Below are positions 18,731-62,000 of a stretch of DNA of 62,294 nucleotides, piece by piece (the first letter of the stretch is position 1; each line of letters opens with the position of its first letter). The notes beneath the pieces are model-generated. The model worked only from the letters and a program-made list of their open reading frames with translations, searched no databases and was not told the origin of the DNA. A program made the translations under genes and the position numbers. Source of the DNA: an uncultured Clostridia bacterium (GTDB lineage: Bacteria > Bacillota > DTU025 > MWDF01). The stretch covers positions 1 through 62,294 of the forward strand of contig CAZNZD010000003.1 in NCBI GenBank assembly GCA_964577435.1, given 5' to 3'.

Positions 18731-19017
18731 CTGCTCCCGCCGTCCTTTCCGGTGCCGGCGAGAAGGCCGAGCTTAATTGGCTTCGCCGGGGGCCTGAAGC
18801 TCGGAGGCTTGACCTCGCTTACCTCGATGCCCTTAAGGCGCGCGATCTCCCTTACGAGTATGTCGGTGCAGCCCCTGCCCTGGCAGGGCCCCATTCCAAT
18901 CCGCGTTACCCTTTTTAGCTCCTCGGGGGTGTCATAGCCTCTTAGTATCCACTCCCTGACCTCGTCGATGGTGATCTCCTCGCATCTGCAGATATATACC
19001 TTCTCGTTACCTGCCAT
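18727..19017 (-). CDS. BFD-like (2Fe-2S)-binding protein
   Basis: ICRCEEIT and KRVTRIGMGPCQGRGC. Confidence 0.85.
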   Translation of the reverse strand: MAGNEKVYICRCEEITIDEVREWILRGYDTPEELKRVTRIGMGPCQGRGCTDILVREIARLKGIEVSEVKPPSFRPPAKPIKLGLLAGTGKDGGSR

Positions 19018-19528
19018 CGGAGCCCACCACCCTTACCGCCCTTACCTTATCCTTGAACTCCATGGGCACTGGCACCGCCACGACGTAGGTCCGATCCTTG
19101 AAAGGCTCTAATACCTGCTCAATCATCGACCGGTAAACCACATTGCCCTCCCTGTCCAGGCATTCCGCCTCCATGCCCTTAGAGGGCCTGGGAAGCATCT
19201 CATAAGGCAGCTTCATGAGCGCCCAGCCATCCTTCCAGGCGAGGTCGACCACGAAGCAGGCCAGCCCGGGGCATCTGGCGACGCACCTTGCGCATCCTGT
19301 ACACTTCGAGTAATCCACCCTGGGGACGTCGTTTATGTCCTCGAAGGGGAGCACGGCGCCCGTGGGGCAGCTGGTGTGGCACGGGTTGCAGGGTATCCTC
19401 TGCGGGCACTCGATGACCACGTAGCCGTTCCTCTTCTTAAGCCAGGCCGCATCCTCCGGAACGCAGATTCCGGCCCTTCTTCCGGTAAGCACGCCGGAGC
19501 CGTAAAGAAGCTCCTCTGCCGTAGGCAT
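19007..19528 (-). CDS. 4Fe-4S dicluster ferredoxin-like protein
   Basis: CPQRIPCNPCHTSCP and CTGCARCVARCPGLAC. Confidence 0.85.
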   Translation of the reverse strand: MPTAEELLYGSGVLTGRRAGICVPEDAAWLKKRNGYVVIECPQRIPCNPCHTSCPTGAVLPFEDINDVPRVDYSKCTGCARCVARCPGLACFVVDLAWKDGWALMKLPYEMLPRPSKGMEAECLDREGNVVYRSMIEQVLEPFKDRTYVVAVPVPMEFKDKVRAVRVVGSDGR

Positions 19529-19531
19529 CGG

Positions 19532-20620
19532 TCACTCGCCTCCTTCGCAAAGGGCGCATGCGATGCCCGCCCTGATCTTGTCGCAGACTTCCCCGGCCCT
19601 CAGGTGCTCGAGCCTCGCGACGAAGCTTTCATGCCTGCCTGCTATAGGCCCATATCCTAGAGATGCGGCGGCTCCGAGCCCGGCAAGCCTTCCTTCCACC
19701 ATGGCCGAGCTCGCCTCCTCTATCCCGGAGGCGTCGCCGGCGACCCAGATGTCCCTGTTAGTGGTCCTAAGGCCGCAGTCTCTTACCGGCACATAGCCGC
19801 AAAGCTGAGGTATGTATCTCATCTGGCATCCAGCCTGCCAAAGCATCTCCACCGTGGGAGTCAGCCCTACGGCAAGGCAGATGGTGTCGCAATCGACGGC
19901 GAATTCCCTTCCTGTGGGCCTGAACCTCTCGTCGAGCTCCATCACTTCCGCCCCTGTTACCACCGTGTCTCCCAGCGCCCTCTTTATGCTGTGCATGAGG
20001 TGGATCGGCACGCCCAGGCGCCTGATCTTCGCAGCGTGCACCCAATAGCCGCCCACCCTGGGCATGGCCTCCAGAACACCAGCGACTTCGACTCCCGCCT
20101 GCATGAGCTGATAGGCGACTATTATGCCGATGTTGCCGGCGCCGACCATGAGCACCCTCTTTCCGGGCGCCACGCCGTACACATTCATCAGAGTCTGCAC
20201 CGCGCCCGCCCCGTATACCCCGGGCAGGTCGTTTCCGGGGAAAGGTATAAGCCTCTCCTGCGCGCCTGCGGCAAGTACGATCTTCCTGGGCCTAACGAGG
20301 AAGTACTCCTCCTCGCCTCTTGTAAGGGCCACGGTGCCATCCTCGCGGTAATAGCCTGTGGCAGTCGTGTCCGTCATCGCGCAAACCTTGCCGGAGAGCC
20401 CCCTAAGCTCCTCAAGCAATATGTCCGAAATCCTGTAGCCCCTGGTGCCGGCATACTCGTCCCGGCTTCCGAAGAACTTATGAGTCTGCTTGATGAGCTG
20501 CCCTCCCAGCATCGGGGCGCTGTCCACCAGCATCACCCCAGCTCCCATCGATGCCGCCTCGCAAGCCGCCGAAAGGCCCGCCGGCCCTCCCCCAATAACG
20601 AGGATTTCCGTCTCAAGCAT
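19532..20620 (-). CDS. FAD/NAD(P)-dependent oxidoreductase (sarcosine oxidase alpha-like core)
   Basis: VIGGGPAGLSAA, GGQLIKQTHKFFG, FPGNDLPGVYGAGA, GAGNIG, WVAGDASG. Confidence 0.88.
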   Translation of the reverse strand: MLETEILVIGGGPAGLSAACEAASMGAGVMLVDSAPMLGGQLIKQTHKFFGSRDEYAGTRGYRISDILLEELRGLSGKVCAMTDTTATGYYREDGTVALTRGEEEYFLVRPRKIVLAAGAQERLIPFPGNDLPGVYGAGAVQTLMNVYGVAPGKRVLMVGAGNIGIIVAYQLMQAGVEVAGVLEAMPRVGGYWVHAAKIRRLGVPIHLMHSIKRALGDTVVTGAEVMELDERFRPTGREFAVDCDTICLAVGLTPTVEMLWQAGCQMRYIPQLCGYVPVRDCGLRTTNRDIWVAGDASGIEEASSAMVEGRLAGLGAAASLGYGPIAGRHESFVARLEHLRAGEVCDKIRAGIACALCEGGE

Positions 20621-20951
20621 CGTCGCGTCCCCCCGTCTCCGCAGGAGGCAGGGATCCCCTGCCATGCTGGGTCTGAACCTCCATGCCTTCGCGCAATGGC
20701 GTCACGCAGGTCCTTACGTTCGGGATGCCGTCTACGACCATGAAGCACGAGCTGCATTTCCCGATGGCGCAGAAAAAGCCCCGCGGCCTTTTATCCACGG
20801 GGCTATGCCTGTACACCTTCACGCCGTTGGCGTGCAGAGCCACGGCTATCGGCTCACCTTCGAAGCCCTGCAAGAGGGATCCGTCGAAAGTGAACTCCAC
20901 TTTCCTTCCATGCTTGAATTCCAGTATAGGGTGTGAATCGATCAACTCCAC
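20613..20951 (-). CDS. (2Fe-2S)-binding protein (sarcosine oxidase alpha N-terminal-like)
   Basis: EGEPIAVAL, RPRGFFCAIGKCSSC, NVRTC; AGGAGG SD before GTG 20951. Confidence 0.85.
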   Translation of the reverse strand: MELIDSHPILEFKHGRKVEFTFDGSLLQGFEGEPIAVALHANGVKVYRHSPVDKRPRGFFCAIGKCSSCFMVVDGIPNVRTCVTPLREGMEVQTQHGRGSLPPAETGGRDDA

Positions 20952-34957: not shown

Positions 34958-35866
34958 TTGAAAGCAGTCGAGCTTGATGCAGCCCGCCTTGGGGATTTCA
35001 AGGCGTTTTGCGTCGCAAGCCGGGATAAGGTGGACGGTTCGTATCTCACCGACGAGGACCTTCAGGGTTTCATCGCCGGTGAGGCTGACCCGACATTTGT
35101 TCTTCTGGGATGTGACGGGTCCATCTCTGGCGCCGGCTCCCTCATGCTCACACGAAAGGCGCTTGCCGCAAGTAAGGCGCGTCTCAGGATCCTTTGGTGC
35201 CCCAAAGGGGCCGAAGAGGACTACTCCTGCCTTCTCGCCGCACTGTTCAGGAACTCCGCCGGCATCGATTCGGCCTACCTTTTCGCGCTTCTTGAGGACG
35301 CGCACCTGAGCGGCATACTAGACGCTTTGGGCTTCAATGTCGAAAGGAACGTCTATTCCCTGATGAGAGACGCTGCTCTTCCGCTAGGCAAGGTTTTTCT
35401 TCCCCCGGGCTTCGCGATAAGGTCCTTTGCATTGGGTGCAGATGAGGATGAATGGTGCAGAATCAGAAACGCCGCGTTCGCAGCTGTGAAGGGCAATGAG
35501 GCGCCGCAGTCTCCTGCCGACATCCTGCAGATGGCCTCCTCGGCCGACAGAATCGACGGAGCCATGCTGGTGCTCGAGGAATCCGGCCGGGCTGTCGCCG
35601 TGGCCAGGGGTTCAAGAGACGAGCTTGAAGGCAATCCTGTGATGAACATCGGGCCGATTGCGGTAATGCCTGAAAGGCAGGGCATGGGGCTCGGCAGGGC
35701 GCTTCTCAGAAGCCTGGTTTCGCTGGCCTCGCAGAAGGGTTTCAGCGTGACGACGCTCAGCGTTAACGCGGATAACGAGACCGCGCTCAGGCTCTATATA
35801 AGCGAGGGCTTCACGAAGCTGCGCTGCTTTGCCTGCAGGTCCGTGAAGCGCCCATTGCCCCTATAG
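34958..35866 (+). CDS. Tandem GNAT acetyltransferase (MshD-like architecture)
   Basis: VMPERQGMGLGRALL, NADNETALRLYISEGF; degenerate N-terminal GNAT domain; start approximate (TTG). Confidence 0.78.
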   Translation: MKAVELDAARLGDFKAFCVASRDKVDGSYLTDEDLQGFIAGEADPTFVLLGCDGSISGAGSLMLTRKALAASKARLRILWCPKGAEEDYSCLLAALFRNSAGIDSAYLFALLEDAHLSGILDALGFNVERNVYSLMRDAALPLGKVFLPPGFAIRSFALGADEDEWCRIRNAAFAAVKGNEAPQSPADILQMASSADRIDGAMLVLEESGRAVAVARGSRDELEGNPVMNIGPIAVMPERQGMGLGRALLRSLVSLASQKGFSVTTLSVNADNETALRLYISEGFTKLRCFACRSVKRPLPL

Positions 35867-36952
35867 CTTGATCTTCGCCACGAATCCACTGCCGACCACT
35901 ATGACCGCGTCGTCATCAGGAATCAGGATGCTGCCTTGACCTATCCTGTCGTCTCGGACCTCCGAGATAACCTCCAGGTCCCATGAGAGCAGCGCGACTG
36001 CTCCCTGCCCTGCGATCGCCATCCCTTTTACCCCAATGGATGCAGGCCTGGCGATGATATCAAATGGCAGGGGGGCGCCCGCTTTGACCGTCCCGTCAGA
36101 GAGCATGACCGGAAACGCCGTCCTCATGTCATCAGCCACCGCAAGCACGCTGTCCTTGTCCTTCTTCACGATGTACGAAGGGATTGCTGTTGATACCTGC
36201 CAGCTCACCGTAGTGCCGCTTACGCCGTTCCATCTGCAGACCCTCCGGTAGTCGGCAGACACCACGATCGCATCCCTTGCCACTACCACGGCCTCATAGA
36301 GGTTGAAGGGCCACAGGTAGTTGCAGTCGAACGATGTGTCCCCGTATTTGACGCTCACCACCGTAAGGTAGTCAAGCGCATCCATGTCGCTGTAAATGCC
36401 GAAGACCTGCCCGAGGAAGAGTATGTCGTCTCCGCCTAGGTATTCCATGGACCTTACAGGCCCAAGAATAATCGGTATTCAGGTGTCGCAACCGGTGGCC
36501 GGGTCATACAGCCATACGAATTTGCCATCCTCGTCAAGCAGGAAGCCTCCAAGCTCGGTTCCCACAAGGATCCTTCCGTCGGGAAGCGGCTCCAGGCAGG
36601 TTACCTGCTCATCGCAGCGATACGTCCATGAGACCTTCCCTGACGGCAGCACCCTTGCGACGGCTTTATCGAAGGCCGACCAGCATCCTCCCTTTGAGTC
36701 CGCCTCCAGGAACTTCACTTCCTCGCCCAGCTTGATACTCCATTGCTGAAGGCCGGCGCCGGTGAGCCTCAATAGCTGCCCACCGTCTGCTATAAGGACG
36801 GAACCGTCGCCGCTTACGGCTGCCAGCGGAGCCGCAAGCCCATCCTTGACCCATTCGTAGCTGAGCCCTTTGTCGGCGGCAAGGGCTAAATGCGGCATGA
36901 ATGCATAAATCAGGATAACGAGTATGGCCAGCCTAACACTAAGATGCTTCAA
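35861..36952 (-). CDS. Secreted beta-propeller (PQQ/WD-like) protein, 363 aa, with an in-frame TGA at 36481-36479 interpreted as selenocysteine (CDTU)
   Basis: ORFs 36479..36952 and 35861..36448 share a frame: ...ATGCDT-TGA-IPIILGPVRS-MEYLGG... Signal peptide ending ALA-A; blade motifs QWSIKLG, SWTYRCD, VWLYDP; SECIS-like hairpin right after the TGA. Confidence 0.75.
36441..36470 (-). promoter_or_regulatory. Candidate bacterial SECIS element
   Basis: mRNA: UGA AUACCGAU UAUUC U U GGGCCU GUA AGGUCC A UG GAAUA. Upper stem UGGGCCU/AGGUCCA, loop GUA with G 22 nt after the UGA, lower stem UAUUC/GAAUA. Confidence 0.65.
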
Positions 36953-43405: not shown

Positions 43406-44008
43406 ATGCTCAATATTCTTGCCGAGCGGACTTTGGCCACAGCCGCCGGCGGGATGTCCCGGGCCGAGGAATTCGAGCAGCTAATGCGCAAGCATCAGGG
43501 CTCGGTATATAACGCCGCGCTCAGGATGACGGGAAACCCCGAGGACGCTAAGGACCTGGCTCAGGACGCCTTCGTCAGGGCATACCGCTCCTTCGACAGC
43601 TACAAAAAGGATACGGCCTTCGACAAATGGCTGTACAGGATAGTGACCAACCTTTTCATAGACGAGGTAAGGAAGAGAAAGAGGCGCCCCGAGACCGAAT
43701 CGTACGACGCTCCGGTCAGGACCGAGGAGGGCAGCATGCAAAGGGAGCTGCCAGACCACGGGGCGGACCCCTTCATAGTACTGGACAAGAATGCGATGGA
43801 CAGCAGGGTATCGGCGGCGCTTCAGGCGCTTCAGCCGGAGTTCAGGATGGTAGTGATCCTTTGCGACATCGAGGGTTTCTCCTACGAGGAGATCGCAGGG
43901 ATCATGAACACATCCATAGGCACGGTAAGAAGCAGGCTCCACAGGGCCAGGAAGGCCCTTAGGGAGGCGCTGGCGCCCCACTTCGATGCCCAAAGGAGGA
44001 TCAATTAG
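43406..44008 (+). CDS. ECF RNA polymerase sigma factor
   Basis: DAKDLAQDAFVRAY, FDKWLYRIVTN, EGFSYEEIA, GTVRSRLHRAR. Confidence 0.93.
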   Translation: MLNILAERTLATAAGGMSRAEEFEQLMRKHQGSVYNAALRMTGNPEDAKDLAQDAFVRAYRSFDSYKKDTAFDKWLYRIVTNLFIDEVRKRKRRPETESYDAPVRTEEGSMQRELPDHGADPFIVLDKNAMDSRVSAALQALQPEFRMVVILCDIEGFSYEEIAGIMNTSIGTVRSRLHRARKALREALAPHFDAQRRIN

Positions 44009-44650
44009 ATGACTTGCAGCAAGTATGAGAGGCTGCTTTCCGCCTTCCTCGACAGGGAGCTGACAAGCGAGGAGACGGCGATGGTCAAAAGGCATGTCAT
44101 CGAGTGCGCCAGCTGCGCAAGGCTGCTCGATGAGTTCGAAAGGATCAAAGAGGCGCTGGAGCAGCTGGAGCCCGCCGAGGAGCCGGATGGCGCCTTCGAC
44201 ATGGGCATAATACGCACCAGGGCCCTGCAGCTTGAGATGGAGGAGGAGGGCGCAACAGGCGGCACAAGGCGATACGGGCTGTTCTCCTTCCTTGGAAGGG
44301 CTCTGCTTCCTGCGGCGCTGGTAGGCACGCTCATCGCCATCCCGATCCTGCAGTTTGCGTTCAACGTCAATATAACGGGGGCCATAGCGGGCCTTGTGAC
44401 AAGGCAGCCCCTGGAGGACCAGCTGGATGAGACCGCCGAGGTGATACTCCCGGACCTCAATCCCGGCGGCATAGGGACCCTGGGCACGCCTGTAGTCAGC
44501 AGCGCATCCTACGGCACGCTTACCCTGGGCTCCTCCCAGGCGCAGTCCGACCTTATACTGACGATAGACGACCCAAGGCTTTCAAGGTATGTGCAGACCT
44601 TCGAGACTTCGGGCTCATACAGCCCGGCTTCATACAGAAGCAATTGGTGA
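44009..44650 (+). CDS. Zinc-finger (ZAS, zf-HC2) anti-sigma factor with TM helix
   Basis: HVIECASC (HxxxCxxC); TM ALLPAALVGTLIAIPILQF; directly after the sigma gene. Confidence 0.85.
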   Translation: MTCSKYERLLSAFLDRELTSEETAMVKRHVIECASCARLLDEFERIKEALEQLEPAEEPDGAFDMGIIRTRALQLEMEEEGATGGTRRYGLFSFLGRALLPAALVGTLIAIPILQFAFNVNITGAIAGLVTRQPLEDQLDETAEVILPDLNPGGIGTLGTPVVSSASYGTLTLGSSQAQSDLILTIDDPRLSRYVQTFETSGSYSPASYRSNW

Positions 44651-44672
44651 GTAAGAAAACGGGAGTGATAGA

Positions 44673-45884
44673 ATGTCCGAAAAGGGCGGAGTATACAAGG
44701 TTGTAGCATTCATAGTCATTGTCGCATGCCTTCTGGCGGTCGGCATGGTTCTTTACGACGGATGGGACAGGCTTGCGCTGAGCAGGCAATCAAACGAGGC
44801 GGGGGAGACAGAAGACGGCTCCGGTGACGGGCTTGAGGGTTCAGGCGGCCTATTTGAAGGTGGAGCAGCGCTTCCCTCCTCAGGGACGAGTTACGCATCG
44901 GCCCTTCCTCCTATAGCGGACGTGGCGGAGGCGGTAAGCCCGGCGGTGGTGAGAATCGACGTCACCAAGACCGTATCCCAGTCCCCAGAGGGCAATTACG
45001 GCATCCTTGGGGACATATTCAGAAACTTCGGCGACTACCAGTACGAGCAGCAGGGCTCAGGCTCAGGCTTCATCATATCCTCCGACGGTTACATAGTGAC
45101 CAACCACCACGTGATTGACGGCATGAACGAGATAAAGGTCACGCTTCTGGACGGAAGGACCTACGACGCGAAGCTCATCGGAAGCTACTCAGCCTACGAC
45201 GTCGCGGTAATAAAGGTGGAGGCCAGCGGCCTTCCGTATGCGGTGCTTGGCAACTCCAAGGACCTGCGTCCCGGGGAGTGGGTCGTAGCCATAGGGAACC
45301 CCCACGGCTTCGAGCACACGGTCACAGCCGGGATAGTAAGCGCCATCGAGAGGAACCTTGCAAACGTCGAAGGGGCTGAGGATATCTCGCAGGCCGAGCT
45401 GATACAGACAGACGCTGCGATCAACTCCGGAAACAGCGGCGGGCCCCTTATCAACATGGACGGCAAGATAGTCGGCATCAATACTGCGATAATCCCGTAC
45501 GCCCAGGGCATCAGCTTCGCGATTTCCATCGATTCGGTCAAGGATGCCATTCAGTCGCTGAAGCAGACCGGCAAATACGCAAGGCCCTGGATCGGCATCT
45601 GGTATTACGCTCTGGACGCAGATGCGGCGGAGCAGCTCGGCATCAAGGAGACGGCCGGCATATACGTCGCTGATGTCGCAGAAGACGGCCCGGCCTCGAG
45701 GGCGGGGATGAAGAAGGGCGACGTCATCAAGGCGTTTGACGGGGTCTCCACAGAGGGCAAGTTCAACCTGGCCCTGAAGGTCAGGGAGAAACAGATAGGC
45801 GACAGCATCAAGCTGACAATAGTGAGAAACGGGAAGAAGATGGACATAAACCTGACTTTAGCTGCAGCACCCGACGAGCAGTAA
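44673..45884 (+). CDS. htrA: HtrA/DegP serine protease with PDZ domain and N-terminal anchor
   Basis: GSGFII, TNHHV, DVAVIK, QTDAAINSGNSGGPL; PDZ (GPASRAGMKKGDVI). Confidence 0.93.
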   Translation: MSEKGGVYKVVAFIVIVACLLAVGMVLYDGWDRLALSRQSNEAGETEDGSGDGLEGSGGLFEGGAALPSSGTSYASALPPIADVAEAVSPAVVRIDVTKTVSQSPEGNYGILGDIFRNFGDYQYEQQGSGSGFIISSDGYIVTNHHVIDGMNEIKVTLLDGRTYDAKLIGSYSAYDVAVIKVEASGLPYAVLGNSKDLRPGEWVVAIGNPHGFEHTVTAGIVSAIERNLANVEGAEDISQAELIQTDAAINSGNSGGPLINMDGKIVGINTAIIPYAQGISFAISIDSVKDAIQSLKQTGKYARPWIGIWYYALDADAAEQLGIKETAGIYVADVAEDGPASRAGMKKGDVIKAFDGVSTEGKFNLALKVREKQIGDSIKLTIVRNGKKMDINLTLAAAPDEQ

Positions 45885-49589: not shown

Positions 49590-50021
49590 TCATTTCTTCC
49601 TTCCTATCTGATGCTTGGGCGATGCGTTCTTCTTAATATAATCCACCCTGTTTTTGGTCCATTCGGCCATCGAAGCCTCATCGAGATCCTTTAGCGCCAT
49701 CATGGCGCGGACAACGGCCTTGCCCTCGCCGGTGGATGTATCGATTCCTTCCCTCAAGCTGATAAGGTTCGCCCCCTTGGCATCCAGGGCTGCAATGATG
49801 CTTATAAGAAGCTGCGAGGATCCGGCTATCTCGGAGAAAGAGGCCGTGACCAGTGTATCCCCCTCCGCGATGTCCGCCATGAGCCTGTTAAGCCCCGGCC
49901 TGCCTGCCGGATTGGTTGAGCGCTCCTCGATGAAGACCACATCCGAGAGCCCTTTCACCCTATCTGAAGAAGGACTCGACCCGCCTGCCTCAGCCTCCCT
50001 GATATAGCCCAACCTGGCCAT
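49590..50021 (-). CDS. Resolvase/serine recombinase catalytic-domain homolog, apparently inactive, no HTH
   Basis: GYIR, RPGLNRL, EGDTLV, LISLREGIDTSTGEG; catalytic Ser and the DRLxR motif are replaced. Confidence 0.75.
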   Translation of the reverse strand: MARLGYIREAEAGGSSPSSDRVKGLSDVVFIEERSTNPAGRPGLNRLMADIAEGDTLVTASFSEIAGSSQLLISIIAALDAKGANLISLREGIDTSTGEGKAVVRAMMALKDLDEASMAEWTKNRVDYIKKNASPKHQIGRKK

Positions 50022-51676: not shown

Positions 51677-52654
51677 TCATCCCACAATAACGTTCTTTCC
51701 CTTCCTTTTGGCCTCCAGAAGGTTCAGATCAGCTGAGTGGACGAAGCTTGCCAGCTCGCCTCCCTCGTATTGCTTTACTCCCCCGCTTACTGTCACCCTG
51801 ATGCCCTCAGCGAAGCCATGGGATTCGAGGGCCTTTCTTATCCGATCCGAGATCTTCCATGCCCCGTCCAGCTTAGTGTCGGGGAAGACCACCATGAACT
51901 CCTCCCCGCCGTATCTTCCGGGGAAGTCGGAGCCTCTTATGCTGCCCCTGATGATCTCAGCGAAGCCAGCCAGCACCTGGTCTCCGTAGATGTGCCCCCT
52001 GCTGTCGTTCACCTTCTTGAAATCATCTATGTCGAACATGGCGATCGAAAGCGGCCTTTTTGTCCTCTGGGCCTCCATGATCTCAGATTTAAGGTGCTCC
52101 AGCAGGGTCCGGTGATTGAACACCTTGGTAAGCCCGTCCATTGCGGCCATATTGGCAAGAATCTCGTTCTTCGCCGCAAGTTCGGTCTCCACGCTCTTCC
52201 TTTCGGTTACATCGAATACGATTCCGGCCAGAAACTGCGGCTTGCCCTCAGAGTCGTATTGCGTGATCTTGCCGCGGTCGTAATACCATCTGTAGGTTCC
52301 GTCCTTAGCGCGTATCCTGTACTCCGCCTCATATACGGCGGCCCTGCCGTAGAGGTGGGCACGCATCGCCTCCATCGCACCCTCCAGGTCTTCAGGGTGA
52401 AGCTTATCGGTAAAGTACTGGTAGTCGACGCGATCCGGCACCTCCCCCCTGTCATATCCAAGCGTAGTCACCTTGAGGGGGTTGAAGGTCACCGTGTTGG
52501 TTTTCACGTCCCAAAACCAATGGCCGAGGTTGCCTGTCCATGCATATTCCAGCTTTACCTCTAGTTCGTCCTCCCTCAGAAGCTCCCGGTTGAGCCTTTC
52601 GAGCTCCTCTATCCGCTCCATCAGCTGCTTTCTTACGCGCTCGCAGTCGTCCAA
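51677..52654 (-). CDS. PAS-GGDEF diguanylate cyclase
   Basis: PAS_3 (LHPED, YRIRAKDGTYRW); DGLT, DIDDFKKVNDSRGHIYGD, I-site RGSD, GGEEF. Confidence 0.92.
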   Translation of the reverse strand: MDDCERVRKQLMERIEELERLNRELLREDELEVKLEYAWTGNLGHWFWDVKTNTVTFNPLKVTTLGYDRGEVPDRVDYQYFTDKLHPEDLEGAMEAMRAHLYGRAAVYEAEYRIRAKDGTYRWYYDRGKITQYDSEGKPQFLAGIVFDVTERKSVETELAAKNEILANMAAMDGLTKVFNHRTLLEHLKSEIMEAQRTKRPLSIAMFDIDDFKKVNDSRGHIYGDQVLAGFAEIIRGSIRGSDFPGRYGGEEFMVVFPDTKLDGAWKISDRIRKALESHGFAEGIRVTVSGGVKQYEGGELASFVHSADLNLLEAKRKGKNVIVG

Positions 52655-53148: not shown

Positions 53149-55257
53149 ATGAACGAGAAGAATGTTACGCCCATATTCACGAATGTTGATCTTCCTGGGT
53201 TGATCAACGTTTTCGGCTACTTCAATCAGCCCGCTGTCATCCTGGGCAAGAAGGAATCAACCGTCGAATGGATCAGCCCCTCAATGGCGGAGGAGCTTGG
53301 CCTCGGTGAGAAAGAAGTCGTGGGCAAGCCTTGTGACAGGCTGTTGGGTCCTGACGGCCTTCCGATCTGCCCTTCGGTTACGCAGCATGACGACCAGGGA
53401 AGCATCGGCGAAGGTTTAATCGCGGGGTTCTCAGGCAAGCCTTCCGTTACGAGGAAGCAACTGCGCTTCGTTTGCTCAGGTGAGGAGTACCTGCTTGTTA
53501 CCTACAACAGCCACGCGACTGCAGAAAATGCAGCACAGGAGCCCAATTCAGAAAGCAGGGTGGAAGGCGCGTTTCATAACCTTCTGCTTGGCGCCGATGG
53601 GCGCATACAGCATGCAAGCAGATCGTTTGCCGACCTTATCGGCGAAAGCGGGGATTCGCTTGTCGGCAGAAGCCTGACGGATTTCATACCCGAAGACCTG
53701 GCTAAGATGGCTGCCATCGAGCTAAGGGAGCTCCTAGGAACCAGCCCCAGGACATTCGACCTTCCCTTGAGATCAGGACCTGACAGAAGAAGCTGGTTCC
53801 AGGCTTATTGCACACAAATCGGGACCGATTCCTACATGATGAACCTGAGGACGATGGATCCAAGCAGCCGTAGCTCTGAAGGGGGGCTTGGGGCGGCAAT
53901 TCTTGAGCAGCTGTTCGAGAACTACCCTATGGCTATTATGCTTGCCGAGAACGATGGCTCGATCATCAACGTCAACAGGGCCTGCACTAATATGTTCGGT
54001 TACGAGAAATCCGAATTCATCGGCCTTAAGGCGGATGATCTCATCGTGCCCGAAGATGAGCAGGACACGGCAGCAGAGCTGACGCGCAAGAGCGCCTTGG
54101 GTCATGCCCTTTCGGCGGCGGGTAAAAGGAGAAGGAAGGACGGCAGGCTCCTGGATGTGAACTTCGTCGGGCTCCCCATAACCTATAAGGAGCAGGAGGT
54201 CGCCTTCTTTGCCATATACCAGGACATAAGCGAGAGCAAGCTGTTCGAGGAGGAACTGACGAAGGCCTTCGCATTTGTAAGGTCCCTTTTCGAGGTAGCC
54301 CCTGACGGCATCTTCTATAAGGACACAGAGGGCAGGTTCCAGATGGTAAGCAAGACCCTTGCGGACAGGCGCGGCCTTCCACCGTCGCAGCTTGTCGGGA
54401 TGACCTACTACGACATACTGCCGAAAAGAAACGCCGACAGGCTGAGCGTGCTTGATAAGAAGGTACTGGAGGGCGTCGAGAACATCGTCATCGAAGACAG
54501 GCTGCCGACTCTGACAGGCGAAAGGGATTTCGAGATAACCCTCTCCCCCGTTAAAGACAATGCAGGCAAGATCACCGGCATAATCGGAATGAGCCATGAC
54601 ATCACCGACCGCAAGAGCACGGAAAGGCTGGTACGCGACGTAAACGAGAGGCTGATAAACCAGGTCAAGCAGCTTGAGCGGACATGGATGCAGACCATCA
54701 GCGTCCTTGCCACCGCATCTGAAGCCCGCGACCTATATACTGCAGGGCACCAGAGAAGGGTGGCCCAGCTAGCCAAAGCTATAGGAGGCAAGCTCGGGCT
54801 CTCCGCAGATACCCTCAAGGGCCTTGAACTGGCAGGCATAGTGCATGACATAGGAAAGATCGACATACCGATCGAAATTCTCACCAAGCCCGGAAGGCTG
54901 GAGGAGGTCGAAATGGAGATCCTGAGGACGCACAGCGAGATGAGCTGGCGGATACTTAAGGACATCGATTTCCCGTGGCCTCTTGCAGAGATTGCCTACC
55001 AGCACCATGAGAGGATAGATGGTTCAGGCTATCCCAACAGGCTTAAGGGGGATCAGATCCTTAAAGAGGCCAGGATACTTGCCGTCGCAGACGTGGTTGA
55101 GGCCATGTCCTCCAACAGGCCCTACAGGCCGGCGCTGGGCATCAAGGCCGCGCTTGATGAGATCGCCTCCAAATCGGCCATCACCTTCGACAGGGATGTA
55201 GTTGAAGCCTGCGTCTCCGTTTTTACCAAGGAAGGTTTCGAGTTCATCGCTTTGTAA
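53149..55257 (+). CDS. Multi-PAS HD-GYP phosphodiesterase (cytoplasmic)
   Basis: Several PAS domains; YTAGHQRRV, HDIGK, HHERIDGSGYP, RPYR. Confidence 0.92.
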   Translation: MNEKNVTPIFTNVDLPGLINVFGYFNQPAVILGKKESTVEWISPSMAEELGLGEKEVVGKPCDRLLGPDGLPICPSVTQHDDQGSIGEGLIAGFSGKPSVTRKQLRFVCSGEEYLLVTYNSHATAENAAQEPNSESRVEGAFHNLLLGADGRIQHASRSFADLIGESGDSLVGRSLTDFIPEDLAKMAAIELRELLGTSPRTFDLPLRSGPDRRSWFQAYCTQIGTDSYMMNLRTMDPSSRSSEGGLGAAILEQLFENYPMAIMLAENDGSIINVNRACTNMFGYEKSEFIGLKADDLIVPEDEQDTAAELTRKSALGHALSAAGKRRRKDGRLLDVNFVGLPITYKEQEVAFFAIYQDISESKLFEEELTKAFAFVRSLFEVAPDGIFYKDTEGRFQMVSKTLADRRGLPPSQLVGMTYYDILPKRNADRLSVLDKKVLEGVENIVIEDRLPTLTGERDFEITLSPVKDNAGKITGIIGMSHDITDRKSTERLVRDVNERLINQVKQLERTWMQTISVLATASEARDLYTAGHQRRVAQLAKAIGGKLGLSADTLKGLELAGIVHDIGKIDIPIEILTKPGRLEEVEMEILRTHSEMSWRILKDIDFPWPLAEIAYQHHERIDGSGYPNRLKGDQILKEARILAVADVVEAMSSNRPYRPALGIKAALDEIASKSAITFDRDVVEACVSVFTKEGFEFIAL

Positions 55258-55287
55258 CGTCATCCGCCTTAGGGCGATGGAGGCTGC

Positions 55288-58200
55288 ATGCTAGAGAGAA
55301 TAAAATCCCACGTCATATGGGGGATCTCGGCGATAGCCATCATGTCGGCAATCGTCCTTATTAGCCTTCAAGGAAGTGTAGACACTCATATCTTCTTCGG
55401 GTTCTGTTCGATGGCCATCGCGATAATCGCTATGCTGACCCTCTATTACCTGAACCGCAACAGCAGGGACGTCTATACCTACTCCCTTCTTACGGCAGCC
55501 ACTGCAACCTGGCTGTCCATCTTCATACACCTGCTCAGCGAGATGGGCTACCTCGGCTTCCTCAGATACTCGGCACAATCGGGCATGCAGATCCAATATG
55601 TGACCAGAACCGCCCAGAGCTTCGTAATCCTTGCCTATATGGCTCTAAGGAATAGGGAGGACAGGATCTGGCTGATGCAGCCCATGACTCATACATTCAT
55701 GTTCATCTGCTATGCGCTCATCTATTACGGAGCCTTTCCTCAGATTGTGGACAGCTCATCGAATCCTACTTTCCTCGCTGTATCGTTCAATGTAGTGCAG
55801 CTATTATCGATCTCCGGACTGCTTGCAGTGATTCTAATGAAGAAGTTCCTCAAGCCATACCTGGCGTCGTTCACAGTCGGCGGCCTGCTGCTGATAATCG
55901 GCAGCGCCCTGTCGCTGCTGGGTCTTAGGGCTAAAGACCCCGCCTTCCATGTCGCCGAGTCGCTTTCCTATATGTTCGCCTATCTCGCTTTCTTCATTGG
56001 CTTCACCGTACCGGCCACTAGAGGCAATCTTGAGATGGGACTATTGCCTCTTCTCTCCGACAGGTCCTCGCTGATAACCGCCTTGGCCCATCCTGCCTTC
56101 ATCACCGATCAGGACATGCTCATCGTGTCCGTGAACAGGGAGGCTGAACGATGGCTTGTCAGAAGCCGGATGGATCTCATCGGCAAGCCCCTGTATTCCA
56201 TCCTGCCTGAAGCGGAGCAGCTTCTTAAGGATATGGTCGCGGAGTCGAGGATGACCTCCAAGGAGGCGACAAGGCCCACCCGAAGCTTTGCAGGAAGGTA
56301 TGTGAGCTTCACCCTTTATCCCAGCATCAACCAGAGCAACCAGGCTACCAGGTATACATTCGTGGGTTGGGATGTGACCGGCGAGATAGAGGCCGAGGAG
56401 GGCTTGGAAAGAAGCGAGCGCATGTACAAGAGCCTCTTTCTTAATATCGGCACCGGTTTCATGCTTTACAGGCTGGCAGGAAGCTCCTCCTCCAAGGAGA
56501 TAGAGGTGATCGACGTCAACCCGGCCTTCGAAAGGAATACGGGAGAGAAGGGGCCTTTCCCTGCCGGGAAGAGGCTGAGGGAGGTAACCGGCTTCCTGAA
56601 CGCAGGCTGGTACGACATGATAGTACGGGCGGCCCTGGACAGGCGTTCTGTCGTCATAGACGGCTTCTCCTCAGGTGCACAGAGATGGCTGTCCATCTCC
56701 GCTTTCCCCGTGACGGAAGAGACCCTCGGAATGGTGATCACCGATCAGACCTCGATAAGGAACTTCCAAAGGGAGATATCGGCAAGCGAGCTCAAGTACC
56801 GAAGCCTCGTCGAGGGAATGCCACTGTTCGTCCTTTCCCTTGATTCAGACTTCCGCGTTACTTACATTAATGACTCCTTAAGGGAATCGACCGGCCTTGG
56901 AAGCCCGGAGGAATACCTGGGAAGGGCCATTGATGAGGTCTTCAACCAGGATTACTGCCAGTTGCTCTCCAAGATGCGTAGTAACGTCAGCACAGGTAAT
57001 GAACTGCTCTCCGAAGAGCTTGAGGTATCAGTAAGAGGCAGGGCTTGCTGGCAGAGATGGATAGCGAAGACGGTAAGGGACAACGACGAGACCCTAGGTT
57101 ATATATTCCTCGGCCAGGACATCACCGAGCAGAAGGAGGCCGCGCAAAGCATATCGCTGTCTGAGGAGCGCTTCAGGACCCTCTTCATGGACAACTACCT
57201 GCCCATGCTGATTGTTGATCCTGAGGACCTTACCATACTTATGGCCAACAAGGCGTCCCAGTCCTTCTACGGCTTCTCAGAGAAGGACCTTGTTGGAAGA
57301 TCCCTGATAAGCTTCTCATCGGCGGGAGATTCAGACAGCATACGGCTTATGGCCAAATCAACGAGAGATTCCGGCTTTGGCTCGATGCCGTTAAGGCAGC
57401 TGGCGCATGGCGGCTCAATCAAGGACGTCGACCTCTTTGCCAGCACGCTTTTCCTCGCCGATAAGATGGTGCTTTCCTTCACTGTCAACGATGTGTCGGA
57501 GCGCAGGCAGATGGAAGACAGGCTGGAAAAGGAGAGGACCTACCTTGACAGCCTGTTCGAGAACAATCCTGACGCGGTGGCCGTTGTTGACGGCAGCTTC
57601 AGAGTGACCCGTTCGAATATCGCTTTCAGGAAGCTCTTCGAACTTTCCGGAAGACCGATCGTCGGCGAGAAGATGTCAGAGCTCATTGGCAGCAGGCACA
57701 ATGCGCAGGATATTGAGGATAATATCAGGGAATCCCTTGAGGGAAACCAGCTTGACTTCACGGCAAGAAGACAGAAACAGGACGGGACTTCTATACCGGT
57801 CCGCGTGATCTGCATCCCGATGACGCTTTCGGATGGCTCCAGGAACGTCTATGCAATCTACCATGACCTCTCAGAGCTGGCTCAGAGCCAGGAGATGCTG
57901 GGGCTTGCCAATGAAGTGGTTAAAGAAAGCCCGGCGGTGCTTTTCAAATGGGCAAATCAGACCGACTGGCCCATAGAGTACGTGTCGGCAAACGTATCCC
58001 GCTGGGGCTACAATCCTGACGACCTTCTGGGGCGAAAGCTCAGGTTCTCCGAGCTTGTGGAGGAGGAGGACCTGGTCAGGGTAACTAAAGAAGTCGAAGA
58101 TAACCTCAAGAAGGGTATTTCAGAATACGTCCAGGAGTACAGGCTCAGGAAGGCAGACGGGCAGTTCATATGGGTCGAGGACCATACGAGGATAGTCAGC

Positions 58201-58878
58201 TCTCCTGAAGGTGAGATCCTTGGCATCCAAGGCGTCATAATCGACAACAATGAGAAGAAGCTTGCTGAGATCGAAAGGATCAAAACTCACGAGGAGCTTA
58301 AGCTAGCTTGGAATAAGAGCCTTGACGTCCTCTCATCCATAACCGAATTCAAGGACCCTTACACCGCCGGGCATCAGAGGGGGGTCGCCGAGATCGCAGA
58401 GAGCATAGCAAGGCACATGGGCTTCTCGGAGGGCAGGATAGAGGCCATCTCCAAGTCCGCGCTAGTCCACGATATCGGCAAGCTGCACATCCCAGCCGAC
58501 ATACTTAACAGGCCCAGGGCTCTTACCCCTCTTGAATACAAGCTTGTTAAGATGCATTGCCAATCGGGAAGGGATATCCTCTCAAACATCAAGCTTCCGT
58601 GGCCTCTTGCGGAAATCGTCTATCAGCACCATGAAAGGATGGACGGAAGTGGTTACCCAAGGGGGCTTAAGGGTGATGAGATCCTCCTAGAGGCGAGGAT
58701 TATAGCGGTCTCGGACATAGTCGACGCGATGACTTCCCACAGGCCGTACAGACCTGCCTGCTCGCTTTCCGATGCGTTGAAGGAGATCATGATGCTTAGG
58801 GGCACCTCCTTGGATACTGATGTCGTAGATGCCTGCATAGGAGCCTACAAAGACAAGGGTGTCAGCCCTGCCGCCTGA
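55288..58878 (+). CDS. Membrane sensor (MASE3-like) multi-PAS HD-GYP phosphodiesterase
   Basis: About 7 N-terminal TM helices with MASE3-like spacing; about five PAS domains; HDIGK, HHERMDGSGYP, HRPYR. Confidence 0.88.
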   Translation: MLERIKSHVIWGISAIAIMSAIVLISLQGSVDTHIFFGFCSMAIAIIAMLTLYYLNRNSRDVYTYSLLTAATATWLSIFIHLLSEMGYLGFLRYSAQSGMQIQYVTRTAQSFVILAYMALRNREDRIWLMQPMTHTFMFICYALIYYGAFPQIVDSSSNPTFLAVSFNVVQLLSISGLLAVILMKKFLKPYLASFTVGGLLLIIGSALSLLGLRAKDPAFHVAESLSYMFAYLAFFIGFTVPATRGNLEMGLLPLLSDRSSLITALAHPAFITDQDMLIVSVNREAERWLVRSRMDLIGKPLYSILPEAEQLLKDMVAESRMTSKEATRPTRSFAGRYVSFTLYPSINQSNQATRYTFVGWDVTGEIEAEEGLERSERMYKSLFLNIGTGFMLYRLAGSSSSKEIEVIDVNPAFERNTGEKGPFPAGKRLREVTGFLNAGWYDMIVRAALDRRSVVIDGFSSGAQRWLSISAFPVTEETLGMVITDQTSIRNFQREISASELKYRSLVEGMPLFVLSLDSDFRVTYINDSLRESTGLGSPEEYLGRAIDEVFNQDYCQLLSKMRSNVSTGNELLSEELEVSVRGRACWQRWIAKTVRDNDETLGYIFLGQDITEQKEAAQSISLSEERFRTLFMDNYLPMLIVDPEDLTILMANKASQSFYGFSEKDLVGRSLISFSSAGDSDSIRLMAKSTRDSGFGSMPLRQLAHGGSIKDVDLFASTLFLADKMVLSFTVNDVSERRQMEDRLEKERTYLDSLFENNPDAVAVVDGSFRVTRSNIAFRKLFELSGRPIVGEKMSELIGSRHNAQDIEDNIRESLEGNQLDFTARRQKQDGTSIPVRVICIPMTLSDGSRNVYAIYHDLSELAQSQEMLGLANEVVKESPAVLFKWANQTDWPIEYVSANVSRWGYNPDDLLGRKLRFSELVEEEDLVRVTKEVEDNLKKGISEYVQEYRLRKADGQFIWVEDHTRIVSSPEGEILGIQGVIIDNNEKKLAEIERIKTHEELKLAWNKSLDVLSSITEFKDPYTAGHQRGVAEIAESIARHMGFSEGRIEAISKSALVHDIGKLHIPADILNRPRALTPLEYKLVKMHCQSGRDILSNIKLPWPLAEIVYQHHERMDGSGYPRGLKGDEILLEARIIAVSDIVDAMTSHRPYRPACSLSDALKEIMMLRGTSLDTDVVDACIGAYKDKGVSPAA

Positions 58879-58912
58879 GAAGGGGGAGGCTTATGCAGAG
58901 TCTGGGCTGATA

Positions 58913-58958
58913 AAAGAGAGCTGAGGAAGCTTCGTGAATGGAAGCTTCCTCAGCTTTT
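58913..58958. terminator. Bidirectional intrinsic terminator
   Basis: aaaagag-agctgaggaagcttc-gtgaatg-gaagcttcctcagct-ttt. Confidence 0.8.
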
Positions 58959-59060
58959 AGAATGCCTTATTTAAGCATCTGTACCGCTCTTCTTACCAGT
59001 CCGACATGTTAATTGCGCACTATCCTCTGGTTTCATCACAATGCCGCTTAGTGCTCCTAC

Positions 59061-62000
59061 TTATTCCTCCTGTAGGCTTCCTGAGAGCACCTTCTCAACC
59101 TTTTCGTGAAGCTGAGCCATCGTGAAAGGTTTCTGCAGGAAGCCGATGCCTTTATCTATCGACATGCGCTTTTCTATCGCCTCCGGGAAATGCCCCGATA
59201 TGAACATGATCCTGATGCCGGGCACCGTCGACTTGACCGCCTCGGCCAGCTCCGATCCATTCATCTCGGGCATTATCAGGTCGCTTATCAGAAGGGCGAT
59301 GTCCTTCCTCTGCTTTACAAGCTCTATAGCCTGGGTCGGCGTCTCTGCGGTCACCACGCTGTAGCCGCCCCTCTCCAGCATTGTCTTTGCAAGCCTGAGT
59401 ATCGCAGGCTCATCCTCGACAAGTAGTATCAAATCGCCTTTGCCCTCCGGTTGCGTCCTGCCCTCCTGGCTCCTTGCTTCCTTCCTGTCAGTGTACCTTG
59501 GCAGATAGACCTTGAAGGTAGAGCCTTTGTCGGGCAAGCTTTCCACCTCGACGAAGCCACCGTTTTGCCTGACGGTGCCATAAAGTATGGCCATGTTCAT
59601 GCTGCCTGCAGGGTCCGACTTGTTCGGCGAGAAGGGTTCGAAGACACTTGCGAGCTCCTCATCATTGAGCCCCTTGCCGTCGTCTTCGACCTTGATCACC
59701 ACAAAATCGCCACCTCTGCTTCCTCCCCGACTTGCCGCGGTTTCCGGCCCAACTTTCTCCATCGAGGTTGAAACGGAGATCTCCCCTGCCCCCTGCACTG
59801 CCTTGTTTGCCCTTGTGCAAAGGTCCGACAGCACCTGTTCGGCTTGTCCCTTGTCCATCATCACATATGATATGCCCTTACCAGGTGCCCATGAGATCGA
59901 TACTTCCTTGCCCAGCTTGCCCCTGCAGCTTTCGAGCTTGCCTTCAATAAGGTCGTTTAGGTCTATCAGCTCTGGACTTATGCTCTGCTTGCCTGCGAAA
60001 GCGAACAGCTGCTTGGTCGTAGCCGATGCCCTCAGTGCAGCCTCGTGTATCGCCTCCAGGCTGCTGTGGCATTCATCGGTGGCCTCTGACTGCTCTAAAG
60101 CGATCTCCGAGTTACCGATGATGACACCCAGCATGTTGTTATAATCATGCGCGATACCCTCAGCCAGCCTGCCGATCGACTCCATCTTCTGCGATTGTGC
60201 GTACAGGCCCTGCAACCTTTGGTTCTCCTCCAGCATGGCCCTGCTCGCCTCATCGTTCTTGATTGCATGCAACCCGAATGATATGTCGTTTGCCATCTCC
60301 GCGAACAACGCCTTCTCCTCGTTGTCCACCAAGCTCTCACTCGCCGATATCACCACGAAGTAGCCGTAATCGGTCCCGGCGTAGGACAACTTGGCGCAGA
60401 GCCCTCTCATCCCTTCGCCGCCCTCGCACCCATCCAACGCCTTATCAAGCAGCATTATCCCTTCCTTTGCCTCTTGCGCCCTTCTGAAGCATTCGGGGTA
60501 GCTTCCGGCGGCGACTCCTATTGCAAGCTTCTCAAGGCATCCTCCCTTGATTCCCGAGCTCCACATCCTGTAGATGCCGTCATCACCTCTAAGGACGATC
60601 AAGGAATCGGCGTACCCATGGTCCCTTACCAGTATTCGGGTCGCTTCGGTTATCAGGGATTCGGGATCTTTCACCCTGGTAAGAAGCTTGCCGATGTTTC
60701 TTATGGAGCTTAACACCCTGTTCATGTGGGTGATCCTGTTTAACATCTGCATCGTTTCCGTGATGTCCTGCAATGATCCATGGAGGCCTTTTACCTTGCC
60801 ATCATGGCTCCTGTTTGCCTGAATCCTAATAAGCAGCATCCTGCCTGCGGCTTCTCCCTCCGAGACGGAGATGTTCAGGCTCTTGCTTTCGCCGGAGGCA
60901 ACGACTTCCTCGAAGGATTCCCTTAATGCATCCAGAGTCGATGTCCCGAACACCTCTGCTAGTTTGAAGAACGGTGCGATGTCCGGAGCCGGGACTTTCC
61001 CCAGGATCCTGAACACCTCATCCGAGCAGTTCATCTTCTCCGAACCCTTCTCCCACTCCCAGCTTCCGATGTGGGATATCGACTCCGTCTCCGAGAGCAT
61101 GGACTGATTCTTGGTTATCTCATCCTCAGATAGTTTGCGCTCCGTCACATCATGGTAGACTTCCAGAGACGAGACCGACCCATCTTCGTTTACCAATGGG
61201 ATGTCGGTTACGTCATAATAGCAACCGTTTCGCTCAAAATACTTGCCCATCCTGATTATCTTCCCAGGAATTGACATCTCGTGCCTGCATCTTGTGCACT
61301 TCTGTTCCAGCTCGTTGAGGTATTGGTAGCATTTCCTGCCCGCAGGGTCGCCGAACTGCTTGATCATCACCGGATTTGCGTACTCCACCTCGTAATCGGC
61401 GTTTACGATGCACACACCGCTTGGAAACTCGTCCAGGATCTGGTTCATCCTCTTCTGTTGCTTGTCAAGCGCCTTCTGCGTCCTTTTTAGGTCTGTTATC
61501 TCGAGCATTGCTCCCACGCTGCCGAGGGCCTTTCCCTTGTCGTCCCTGTATATGGACTTAGTAACCAGGTAACTTGCCTCCTGGCCGTCTGATCCTGTTA
61601 TCGACGCCTCATAGGTCGGGACGGTCCTTTGACCGGGGAGGAGCTCGTCCCACCTGGAAAGGACCTCACGAAGCTGCCCGCTCGCAACTTCATCGTCCTT
61701 CTTTCCCTTCATCTGCTCCGAGCTAAGGCCGACCAGCTGTGCGAAGGACCTGTTGCAGCCGAGATACTTTCCGTCGGGATCCTTGAAGAAGACCGGAGCT
61801 GCAATGGAATCGATGACGTCATCTAGCAGCTTGCCGCTTGCCTTGAGCTGCTCTGTCCTAAGTCCAACCTGCTCTCTTAGCGTCCTCACCCAAACAAGGG
61901 CAAGAAGCCCAAGGGCGGCGAAGGGAAGGATGCCGATCAAGGCGAACTTGACCAGGGAAGCGGCATCAAAGCTCTTCGGCTCGTAGACTCCGAGCCATTT

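Follow-up and report, generated by a model that had tools for sequence, protein, structure and literature searches.

What is a TGA triplet doing in the middle of what looks like a single gene? The question is raised by a 62,294-nucleotide (nt) stretch of DNA from an uncultured Clostridia bacterium (contig CAZNZD010000003.1, positions 1 to 62,294; hereafter the window). On its minus strand two open reading frames (ORFs) of 157 and 195 amino acids (aa) lie in the same frame, the first starting with TTG and ending with TGA, and are separated by this single TGA and 10 sense codons. A reading made from the letters alone (the sequence-only reading) had joined the two ORFs into one gene for an exported beta-propeller selenoprotein, in which the UGA would be read as selenocysteine (Sec). 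The arrangement was confirmed exactly as described there: the junction runs FVWLYDPATG-C-D-T-[TGA]-IPIILGPVRS-MEYLGG, the read-through product has 363 aa, and the predicted junction peptide with Sec is ...FVWLYDPATGCDT-U-IPIILGPVR. The proposal is supported by conservation of the TGA, by a covarying hairpin downstream of it and by the predicted fold of the product. Judged from these, positions 35861–36952 are probably (about 0.8) a single gene for an exported selenoprotein, and that UGA158 itself is a genuine Sec codon is as probable or slightly more so.

The in-frame TGA in independent read sets

An identical 1092-nt gene, including the TGA and with 0 mismatches, was found in the Logan assemblies SRR10083294, SRR10083292 and SRR31366797, which derive from three independent read sets. 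The stop is thus not a read or assembly error. Elsewhere in the window TGA is an ordinary stop codon. It ends 22 of the 54 long non-overlapping ORFs, in the gcv operon with the usual overlap of stop and start as ATGA, and any recoding of the UGA within the gene must therefore be local rather than the product of a changed genetic code. It had also been foreseen that ordinary annotation would split the gene, and public records do label the pieces ‘hypothetical protein’: NCBI, JGI, ENA and Logan all either give fragments or translate the UGA as Trp.

Homologues retain the TGA codon

Run against 5.8 billion proteins, the read-through product returned two matches, both of them C-terminal pieces of ∼200 aa. 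In both source contigs an upstream ORF lies in the same frame, with a single, identically placed TGA between it and the matching piece. Six more loci came from scans of genome and metagenome collections, all reading ...DPATGCDT-TGA-IPI..., among them metagenome-assembled genomes labelled ‘uncultured Clostridia bacterium’ and ‘Bacillota bacterium’ and one activated-sludge contig. An exhaustive phmmer search of 1.84 billion representatives revealed a wider family, in the form of many proteins of 99–166 aa that stop at query residue 157 or a few residues from it, together with numerous proteins of 179–207 aa that begin at residues 160–190.

The ends of the N-terminal fragments fall into three clades: type 1, to which the window gene belongs (...WLYDPATG-C-D-T-stop), type 2 (...WEHYAHEE-C-D-T-stop) and type 3 (...WEYYRPED-C-stop). 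DNA of types 2 and 3 (L009–L013) contains one in-frame TGA, followed by VPKAPGPVRA or FPTLTGPVRS. The junctions would thus read DPATGCDT-U-IPI in type 1, HEECDT-U-VPK in type 2 and YRPEDC-U-FPT in type 3. The CxxU motif named in the sequence-only reading therefore holds for types 1 and 2, where the Cys stands three residues before the Sec position, and has to be widened for type 3, where the two are adjacent (CU).

Including the window, 13 distinct DNA sequences were available (the 12 others being among L001–L013). The TGA occupies the same aligned codon in 12/12 of the further homologues and is always six codons ahead of a conserved Gly-Pro-Val; no Trp, Arg or other sense codon occurs there in the DNA. 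This constancy is seen across considerable divergence, with pairwise identities from 20% to 78% among the nine full-length sequences and clades that are 20–30% identical to one another. So far as seen, the family is confined to uncultured Bacillota of digesters and sludge. Genomes with the gene include CAZHKX01 (‘uncultured Clostridia’), JAKQNF01 (‘Bacillota bacterium USDV_metabat.107’) and the TPA Bacillota genomes to which HNZ09575.1, HOH10899.1 and HQJ23788.1 belong.

Conservation of the protein does not stop at the TGA. The 21-residue interval of highest conservation covers residues 153–173 and straddles it (0.64, compared with 0.35 overall), and among close relatives the codons just 3′ of the TGA differ mostly synonymously (CCG/CCT, ATT/ATC/ATA). 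A start codon after the TGA is not conserved: the first is an ATG 11 codons down in the window and lies ∼30 conserved codons down in type 3. The homologues are thus not pairs of independent genes, in keeping with the joined gene first proposed, since the stretch from the TGA to the first start shows protein-level conservation and no start codon is conserved.

Across all protein searches only N-terminal fragments of 99–166 aa and C-terminal fragments of 136–207 aa were obtained, save for two spanning proteins with an annotated Trp at the junction, P0011 and its cluster-mate P0170, which has the same CW junction. P0011 (JGI) is the only spanning database protein that could be read as DNA, and its DNA has TGA where the protein has ‘W’; the W is therefore a gene-caller artefact.

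Two observations on individual relatives may be recorded here. The JGI/IMG call behind P0011 (L009, 770–1798) places Trp at the TGA and so yields a 342-aa ‘hypothetical protein’ containing ...EDCWFPT..., and short contigs called under a TGA=Trp code can in this way conceal selenoproteins as normal-looking Trp proteins. In the type-3 gene on a 167-kb contig (L011, 9400–10570) frameshifts occur near both gene ends, while EDC-TGA-FPTLTGPVWS is kept; the relative L012 is intact, and the frameshifts look like long-read assembly indel errors rather than decay.

A covarying SECIS-like hairpin follows the UGA

Bacterial insertion of Sec requires a hairpin, the Sec insertion sequence (SECIS), after the UGA. 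A single conserved hairpin 3′ of the UGA was obtained by RNAalifold on the type-1 sequences. In the window its codons are Leu-Gly-Pro (5′ arm), Val (loop) and Arg-Ser-Met (3′ arm), and the lower stem extends to about 36441–36470. Across the family the hairpin is 17–18 nt long and begins 14–15 nt past the UGA. The 5′ arm of the stem has the form N-GGN-CCN, that is, the Gly and Pro codons together with the final base of the codon before them; the apical loop is the Val codon GUN; and the 3′ arm is made of Arg or Trp and Ser or Ala codons plus the first base of the next codon.

Pairing was assessed in an ungapped alignment of 12 distinct sequences (A5), in which columns 30–36 pair with columns 40–46. 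The seven stem pairs are formed in 94% of cells, a level reached by 0/500 shuffles, and shifting the 3′ arm by one column lowers pairing to 64–67%. Double compensatory changes occur at two pairs, the outer pair (GC in 6 sequences, UA in 4, AU in 2) and the loop-closing pair (UA in 4, GC in 2, GU in 2). The outer pair couples the third position of one codon with the first base of another codon five codons off, and its covariation is not explained by protein constraints.

The published bacterial SECIS (bSECIS) model calls for a loop of 3–9 nt with G and then G/U first, a stem of 4–16 bp, a distance of 16–37 nt from the UGA and a minimum free energy ≤ −7.5 kcal/mol (PMC13188914, Fig. 2 legend). 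All four constraints are satisfied by 11/12 sequences, with stems of 6–7 bp, GUN or NGUNN loops, spacings of 20–21 nt and folding free energies (ΔG) of −8.4 to −11.9 kcal/mol; by comparison, 2.2% of the 1948 TGA trinucleotides in the window pass. A SECIS-like hairpin, as expected after the UGA, is thus present, conserved and covarying. The sole sequence to fail (L005, 136–210) comes from an activated-sludge contig of 1.9x coverage. It carries a C>U change in the stem (Pro>Leu, GPVRS>GLVRS) that turns a C-G pair into U-G and takes the simple hairpin energy below the bSECIS threshold; the change is a sequencing error or else a variant that the element tolerates.

Of the marks by which bacterial selenoprotein genes are recognized, this locus shows a conserved UGA flanked by coding conservation, a SECIS-like hairpin at a suitable distance, a neighbouring Cys in CxxU or CU spacing, and UGA as a stop otherwise; the one it lacks is a Sec/Cys pair among homologues.

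Predicted export, fold and position of the Cys/Sec pair

By eye, the N-terminus of the product reads as a signal peptide, with a K/R-containing n-region, a hydrophobic core, A-x-A before the predicted cleavage site (between ...HLALA and ADKG) and no lipobox. All family members have an N-terminus of this kind, in which a basic n-region is followed by a hydrophobic core and then by a small-x-small site.

Pfam gave nothing above threshold, the best being SGL at an E-value of 0.075 with a faint similarity to PQQ_2, and in NCBIfam release 20 the only match was BamB (TIGR03300), at 15 bits where the cut-off is 285. A family profile run against the sequences of the PDB matched the designed propellers Cake10, Cake9 and Cake8 at E = 1.5e-52 to 5e-29, the archaeal 3hxj at 5e-29 and YxaL-type proteins; BamB was matched at about 1e-7 by the C-terminal half. 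The alignment used for the PDB and protein searches (A6) includes 18 artificial rows in which fragments of different contigs were joined as N+X+C, and is uninformative on co-variation between the halves.

For structure prediction a separate alignment (A8) was made from the window protein with X at the Sec position, P0011, 18 N-terminal fragments and 5 C-terminal fragments, the placement of which was checked; joint MAFFT alignment of N- and C-terminal fragments misplaces one set on the wrong blades, and neither duplicated rows nor X-padding cures this. On the single sequence AlphaFold2 gave a useless model, with a predicted local distance difference test score (pLDDT) of 35. With A8 the pLDDT was 89.3 and the predicted template modelling score 0.83, and the model consists of a signal-peptide helix and 31 strands. 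Foldseek matched it to the eight-bladed propellers Cake8, BamB, YxaL and Tako8 at template modelling scores of 0.66–0.72. The predicted fold is thus an eight-bladed propeller of the pyrroloquinoline quinone (PQQ)-like/BamB-like kind with N-terminal strand closure, and the tandem blades of ∼40 aa with a G...W signature agree with this. The signal peptide and PQQ-like propeller of the sequence-only reading are accordingly recovered in the model.

Counting strands in the model, residues 145–149 (the strand of W147) form the outer strand D of blade 3, and residues 161–173 the inner strand A of blade 4. The generic PQQ-repeat motif W-x-f-x-T-G-x-x-I-x-S-S-P aligns to W-L-Y-D-P-A-T-G-C-D-T-U-I-P in the window protein, and none of the generic repeats has a Cys there. 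In the ‘S-S-P’ with which strand A of blade 4 begins, the Sec would therefore take the second Ser position. From propeller topology, Sec158 would lie where the connection from D3 to A4 ends, at the central channel's mouth. The motif had been placed, as probable, in a surface loop; the C-D-T-U segment is indeed a loop in the model, though not an arbitrary one, being the D-to-A connection that leads into the innermost strand of blade 4.

Alternative explanations

A nonsense mutation or a miscalled base in an ordinary propeller gene would likewise show as one in-frame stop, and the pieces do stand as separate hypothetical proteins in public annotation. The same TGA nevertheless recurs in the three independent read-set assemblies and in 12 other distinct homologues down to 20% identity, homologous TGAs come from Logan, ENA, JGI and NCBI assemblies and not from one pipeline, and strong purifying selection acts on both halves and on the junction. 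With the codon conserved and present in independent read sets, a pseudogene or a sequencing or assembly error is effectively refuted. Stopping at the TGA and restarting downstream would give two real genes, whose three-blade and five-blade products together would form a split propeller. Gene callers always yield two ORFs, the site of the break, between blades 3 and 4, is one at which a split would be structurally tolerable, and in type 2 a GTG directly follows the TGA. What makes this very unlikely is that the best-conserved 10–30 codons after the TGA precede any usable start. Moreover, the first start varies between clades in both position and kind, nothing resembling a Shine-Dalgarno sequence precedes the TGA, the downstream piece lacks its own signal peptide despite the predicted export of the protein, and a conserved, covarying hairpin stands at SECIS distance.

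If the UGA is read through, the inserted residue could be a standard amino acid (Trp, Cys, Arg or Gly), by hairpin-stimulated near-cognate suppression or by a dedicated suppressor tRNA. Hairpins that stimulate read-through from the 3′ side are known, Sec machinery was not found in the sequence searched (the window and the flanks of related loci), and there are no Cys-form relatives to anchor a Sec/Cys pair. However, TGA has been kept across three deep clades, and TGG or TGC, each one base away, is never used; it is chiefly because no member has swapped the TGA for a sense codon one mutation away that we regard a standard residue as improbable. In addition, the hairpin fits bSECIS geometry and its G-U loop rule, the invariant Cys gives CxxU or CU, both typical of selenoproteins, and the hosts are Bacillota/Clostridia, in which use of Sec is common. 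A genuine selenoprotein might still hold its Cys/Sec pair for a structural purpose, as a selenenylsulfide staple or as a covalent tether to Cys117 of the lipoprotein encoded beside the type-1 genes (described below). PQQ-like, BamB and YxaL-type propellers of this size are mostly scaffolds and not enzymes, and the partner lipoprotein has exactly one invariant free Cys. On the other hand, Sec is costly where Cys serves structural cross-links well, the lipoprotein accompanies only one of the three clades, and a family that uses Sec exclusively argues for chemistry beyond that of Cys; a structural role seems to us rather unlikely.

Several results weigh against a selenoprotein with a Cys/Sec functional centre. 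A search confined to the 62-kb window and the flanks of related loci found no selA, selB, selD or Sec tRNA gene, and the window has no other recognizable selenoprotein gene. No Cys-form or other full-length homologue was found by phmmer on the 1.84 billion representatives or by three word-indexed searches of the 5.8 billion proteins, including searches with C-domain and family profiles, and so a Sec/Cys pair, the usual computational though not strictly defining sign of a selenoprotein, is lacking. The C-D-T-U loop is the weakest block of the structural model (residues 151–160, pLDDT about 60). The hairpin stem is made of codons for the conserved peptide GPVRS, and its conservation could in part be at the protein level. 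Gene context differs among the three clades. Rfam gave no match to a SECIS family either at gathering threshold or at E ≤ 10, which is expected, because the bacterial SECIS models in Rfam are family-specific.

Comparison with known selenoproteins and propellers

A 2026 review of >110 prokaryotic selenoprotein families includes no propeller or PQQ-like protein (PMC13188914), and the literature yielded no relevant report of a propeller or PQQ-like selenoprotein. The family had not been recognized in the sequence-only reading; no Pfam, NCBIfam or Rfam model describes it, and the putative selenoprotein belongs to no described selenoprotein family.

The closest parallels in recoding are the known SelB/bSECIS-dependent selenoproteins with CxxU or CU, both of which are listed among the motifs of bacterial selenoproteins: GrdA (CxxU), exported DsbA/TlpA-like proteins, and the MerB-like SaoL and SaoC (CU) (PMC13188914). 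Shared with these are the in-frame UGA, the small hairpin with a G-U loop at 20–21 nt inside the coding region, and a nearby Cys in CxxU or CU spacing; some known members are also extracytoplasmic. The window family is unrelated to them in sequence, without a Pfam or NCBIfam match, and differs in having a predicted beta-propeller where they have small redox folds (thioredoxin-like, rhodanese, AhpD or others), and in having no Cys homologues. ‘Nearly all’ known bacterial selenoprotein families have many Cys homologues, and according to the deep-Sep paper current methods may miss selenoproteins that lack them, which would explain how a propeller family went unnoticed.

In architecture the product resembles YxaL (7dxn, Bacillus), BamB (3q54 and others), the archaeal cell-surface PQQ-like repeat protein 3hxj and the Cake, Scone and Tako designs derived from such proteins, which have eight G...W blades of ∼40 residues in ∼340 aa, and it shares with PQQ-like propellers a secreted or envelope location, predicted here. 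Those proteins have S-S-P or no reactive residue where the window family has C-x-x-U-I-P or C-U-F-P, none of them is a selenoprotein, and the C-terminal five blades of the window family match no Pfam model.

Three identities were considered and rejected. The protein is not BamB: it has no lipobox (ALA-AD at the cleavage site, without a Cys), scores 15 bits against the 285 required by TIGR03300, and has hosts in the Bacillota. A thioredoxin-fold CxxU/UxxC oxidoreductase does not fit, the model being all-beta save for the signal-peptide helix and thioredoxin-family matches being absent. Nor does a PQQ-dependent dehydrogenase, given no PF01011 match and a mature protein of ∼338 aa rather than ∼600 aa, despite one weak PDB match of the family profile to an ADH (22vi, E 1.3e-4). 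PQQ methanol and alcohol dehydrogenases are proteins of ∼600 aa with PQQ- and Ca-binding residues, PF01011 repeats and a vicinal Cys-Cys disulfide above the cofactor. They are of interest by analogy, not membership, as eight-bladed propellers of the same superfamily in which the redox-active Cys-Cys may be compared with the adjacent Cys-Sec of type 3; the window protein is half their size, has no PF01011 match and shows no evidence of a cofactor site.

Genomic surroundings

The features of the locus are collected in Table 1.

Table 1. Features of the putative selenoprotein locus in the window
Feature	Coordinates	Strand	Remarks
Complete selenoprotein gene (putative)	35861..36952	minus	363 codons plus TAG stop, TTG start; based on frame, TGA conservation and predicted fold
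N-terminal ORF of ordinary annotation, 157 aa	36479..36952	minus	Signal peptide and blades 1–3, ending Cys-Asp-Thr-UGA; database homologues are called in the same way
Signal peptide, residues 1–25 (predicted)	36878..36952	minus	MKHLSVRLAILVILIYAFMPHLALA, followed by ADKG; read from sequence; AlphaFold2 helix 2–21; equivalent N-termini family-wide
Cys155 codon (TGC)	36488..36490	minus	Only Cys invariant family-wide (alignment A6)
In-frame UGA, read as Sec158 (inferred)	36479..36481	minus	Plus-strand ‘tca’; conserved in all 13 distinct DNA sequences
Core SECIS-like hairpin UGGGCCU-GUA-AGGUCCA	36448..36464	minus	7 bp, 3-nt loop, ΔG −8.4 kcal/mol; loop starts 21 nt after the UGA
C-terminal ORF of ordinary annotation, 195 aa	35861..36448	minus	Remainder of blade 4 and blades 5–8; family-specific half
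Upstream lipoprotein gene, ∼215 aa	36984..37652	minus	31 nt away; lipobox LAGC (Cys29), one further invariant Cys117; no known family

In every type-1 locus the selenoprotein gene is immediately preceded by this lipoprotein gene, which shows 39–78% identity among its copies and is probably an operon partner. Cys117 of the lipoprotein is a possible thiol partner of the Cys/Sec centre. Neither Pfam nor NCBIfam gave a match above cut-off for this lipoprotein; one orthologue gave a hint of a 3-keto-disaccharide-hydrolase-like/jelly-roll domain at E 0.064. At its other end the selenoprotein gene overlaps the end of a convergent GNAT gene by 6 nt. The wider type-1 order is conserved: MurD-like ligase, FolD and GNAT genes, then lipoprotein and selenoprotein, then GNAT, FmdA, LplA, radical SAM and glycine-cleavage genes.

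The other clades have other neighbours. In type 3 (L011, L012) these form a conserved block of DUF1295/steroid-reductase-like, YjbR, SnoaL-like, SDR, amine-oxidase-like and squalene-hopene-cyclase-like genes, a neighbourhood suggestive of hopanoid-type metabolism of envelope lipids; an SLH-domain protein is also encoded nearby in L011. In type 2 they are a SurA_N-like gene and rplM-rpsI. Since the contexts differ between clades, the neighbourhood offers no common functional lead.

The only other long ORF pair in the window with an in-frame TGA was considered as a second Sec candidate and set aside. At 19007–20701 (minus strand) a 377-aa Pyr_redox_2 ORF and a 173-aa 4Fe-4S ORF are joined as ...CALCEGGE-TGA-P-MPTAEE..., followed by a DAO-family gene; they look like two adjacent genes, most likely for two subunits of a multi-subunit flavoprotein dehydrogenase, whose common frame is a coincidence.

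Some further features of the window were noted. A 1465-aa ORF at 7100–11497 (plus strand) has no Pfam match at E ≤ 1e-5. Genes for an extracytoplasmic-function (ECF) sigma factor, a zf-HC2 anti-sigma factor and an HtrA-like Trypsin_2/PDZ protease stand in a row at 43406–45884 (plus strand), a typical envelope-stress module. Between tRNA genes, at 49590–50021 (minus strand), a 143-aa ORF matches a resolvase N-terminal domain only over its C-terminal two thirds, profile positions 36–142 of 145, and is possibly a mobile-element remnant. Three genes for large signalling proteins follow one another at 53149–62237; two of the products (702 and 1196 aa) are multi-PAS and HD-GYP-type (HD_5), the third is a PAS/histidine-kinase/receiver hybrid of 1058 aa, and there is a PAS-GGDEF gene just upstream (51677–52654).

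Proposed mechanism and significance

We propose that a SelB-type factor bound to the downstream hairpin would deliver Sec-tRNA(Sec) at UGA158, whereupon translation would continue to give the 363-aa precursor. The Sec-type signal peptide would direct export, and the mature protein of ∼338 aa would fold into the eight-bladed PQQ-like/BamB-like beta-propeller. Outside the cytoplasmic membrane the Cys/Sec pair would then work in one of two ways, by reversible redox cycling through a selenenylsulfide or by binding a soft metal or metalloid through S and Se as a bidentate ligand. In type 1 this centre may cooperate with the one invariant free Cys of the probably co-transcribed, membrane-anchored lipoprotein. 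That the pair is a functional centre of one of these two kinds we hold to be slightly better than an even chance.

A more specific version, whose odds we put at even, makes this protein the first selenoprotein to be built on a beta-propeller, and its family Sec-only: a structural Ser at the channel mouth would have been replaced by Sec beside an invariant Cys, giving an extracytoplasmic selenol/thiol centre with chemistry beyond the reach of Cys. As part of that version, the chemistry would be the capture of soft metals or metalloids or a low-potential selenenylsulfide relay to the membrane-anchored lipoprotein, and the SECIS would have been carved from the codons of the following strand, which read GP-DGT in generic PQQ-like repeats and GP-VRS here.

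The putative selenoprotein represents a new family on an unusual scaffold, predicted to be exported, Sec-only and equipped with a compact, covarying SECIS. Nearly every known bacterial selenoprotein is a small enzyme of a redox fold and has abundant Cys relatives, on which the main discovery methods rely. If the assignment is true, a secreted, Sec-only propeller family would widen the structural range of selenoproteins and show what both Cys-pair-based finders and routine annotation overlook; further Sec-only families may then be hidden in metagenomes, since the finders depend on Cys homologues. The compact SECIS of 17–18 nt, encoding Gly-Pro-Val-Arg-Ser and taken from uncultured Bacillota, is directly testable. 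The family would also be a natural case of a seemingly irreplaceable Sec, and would bear on the question of why Sec is used rather than Cys.

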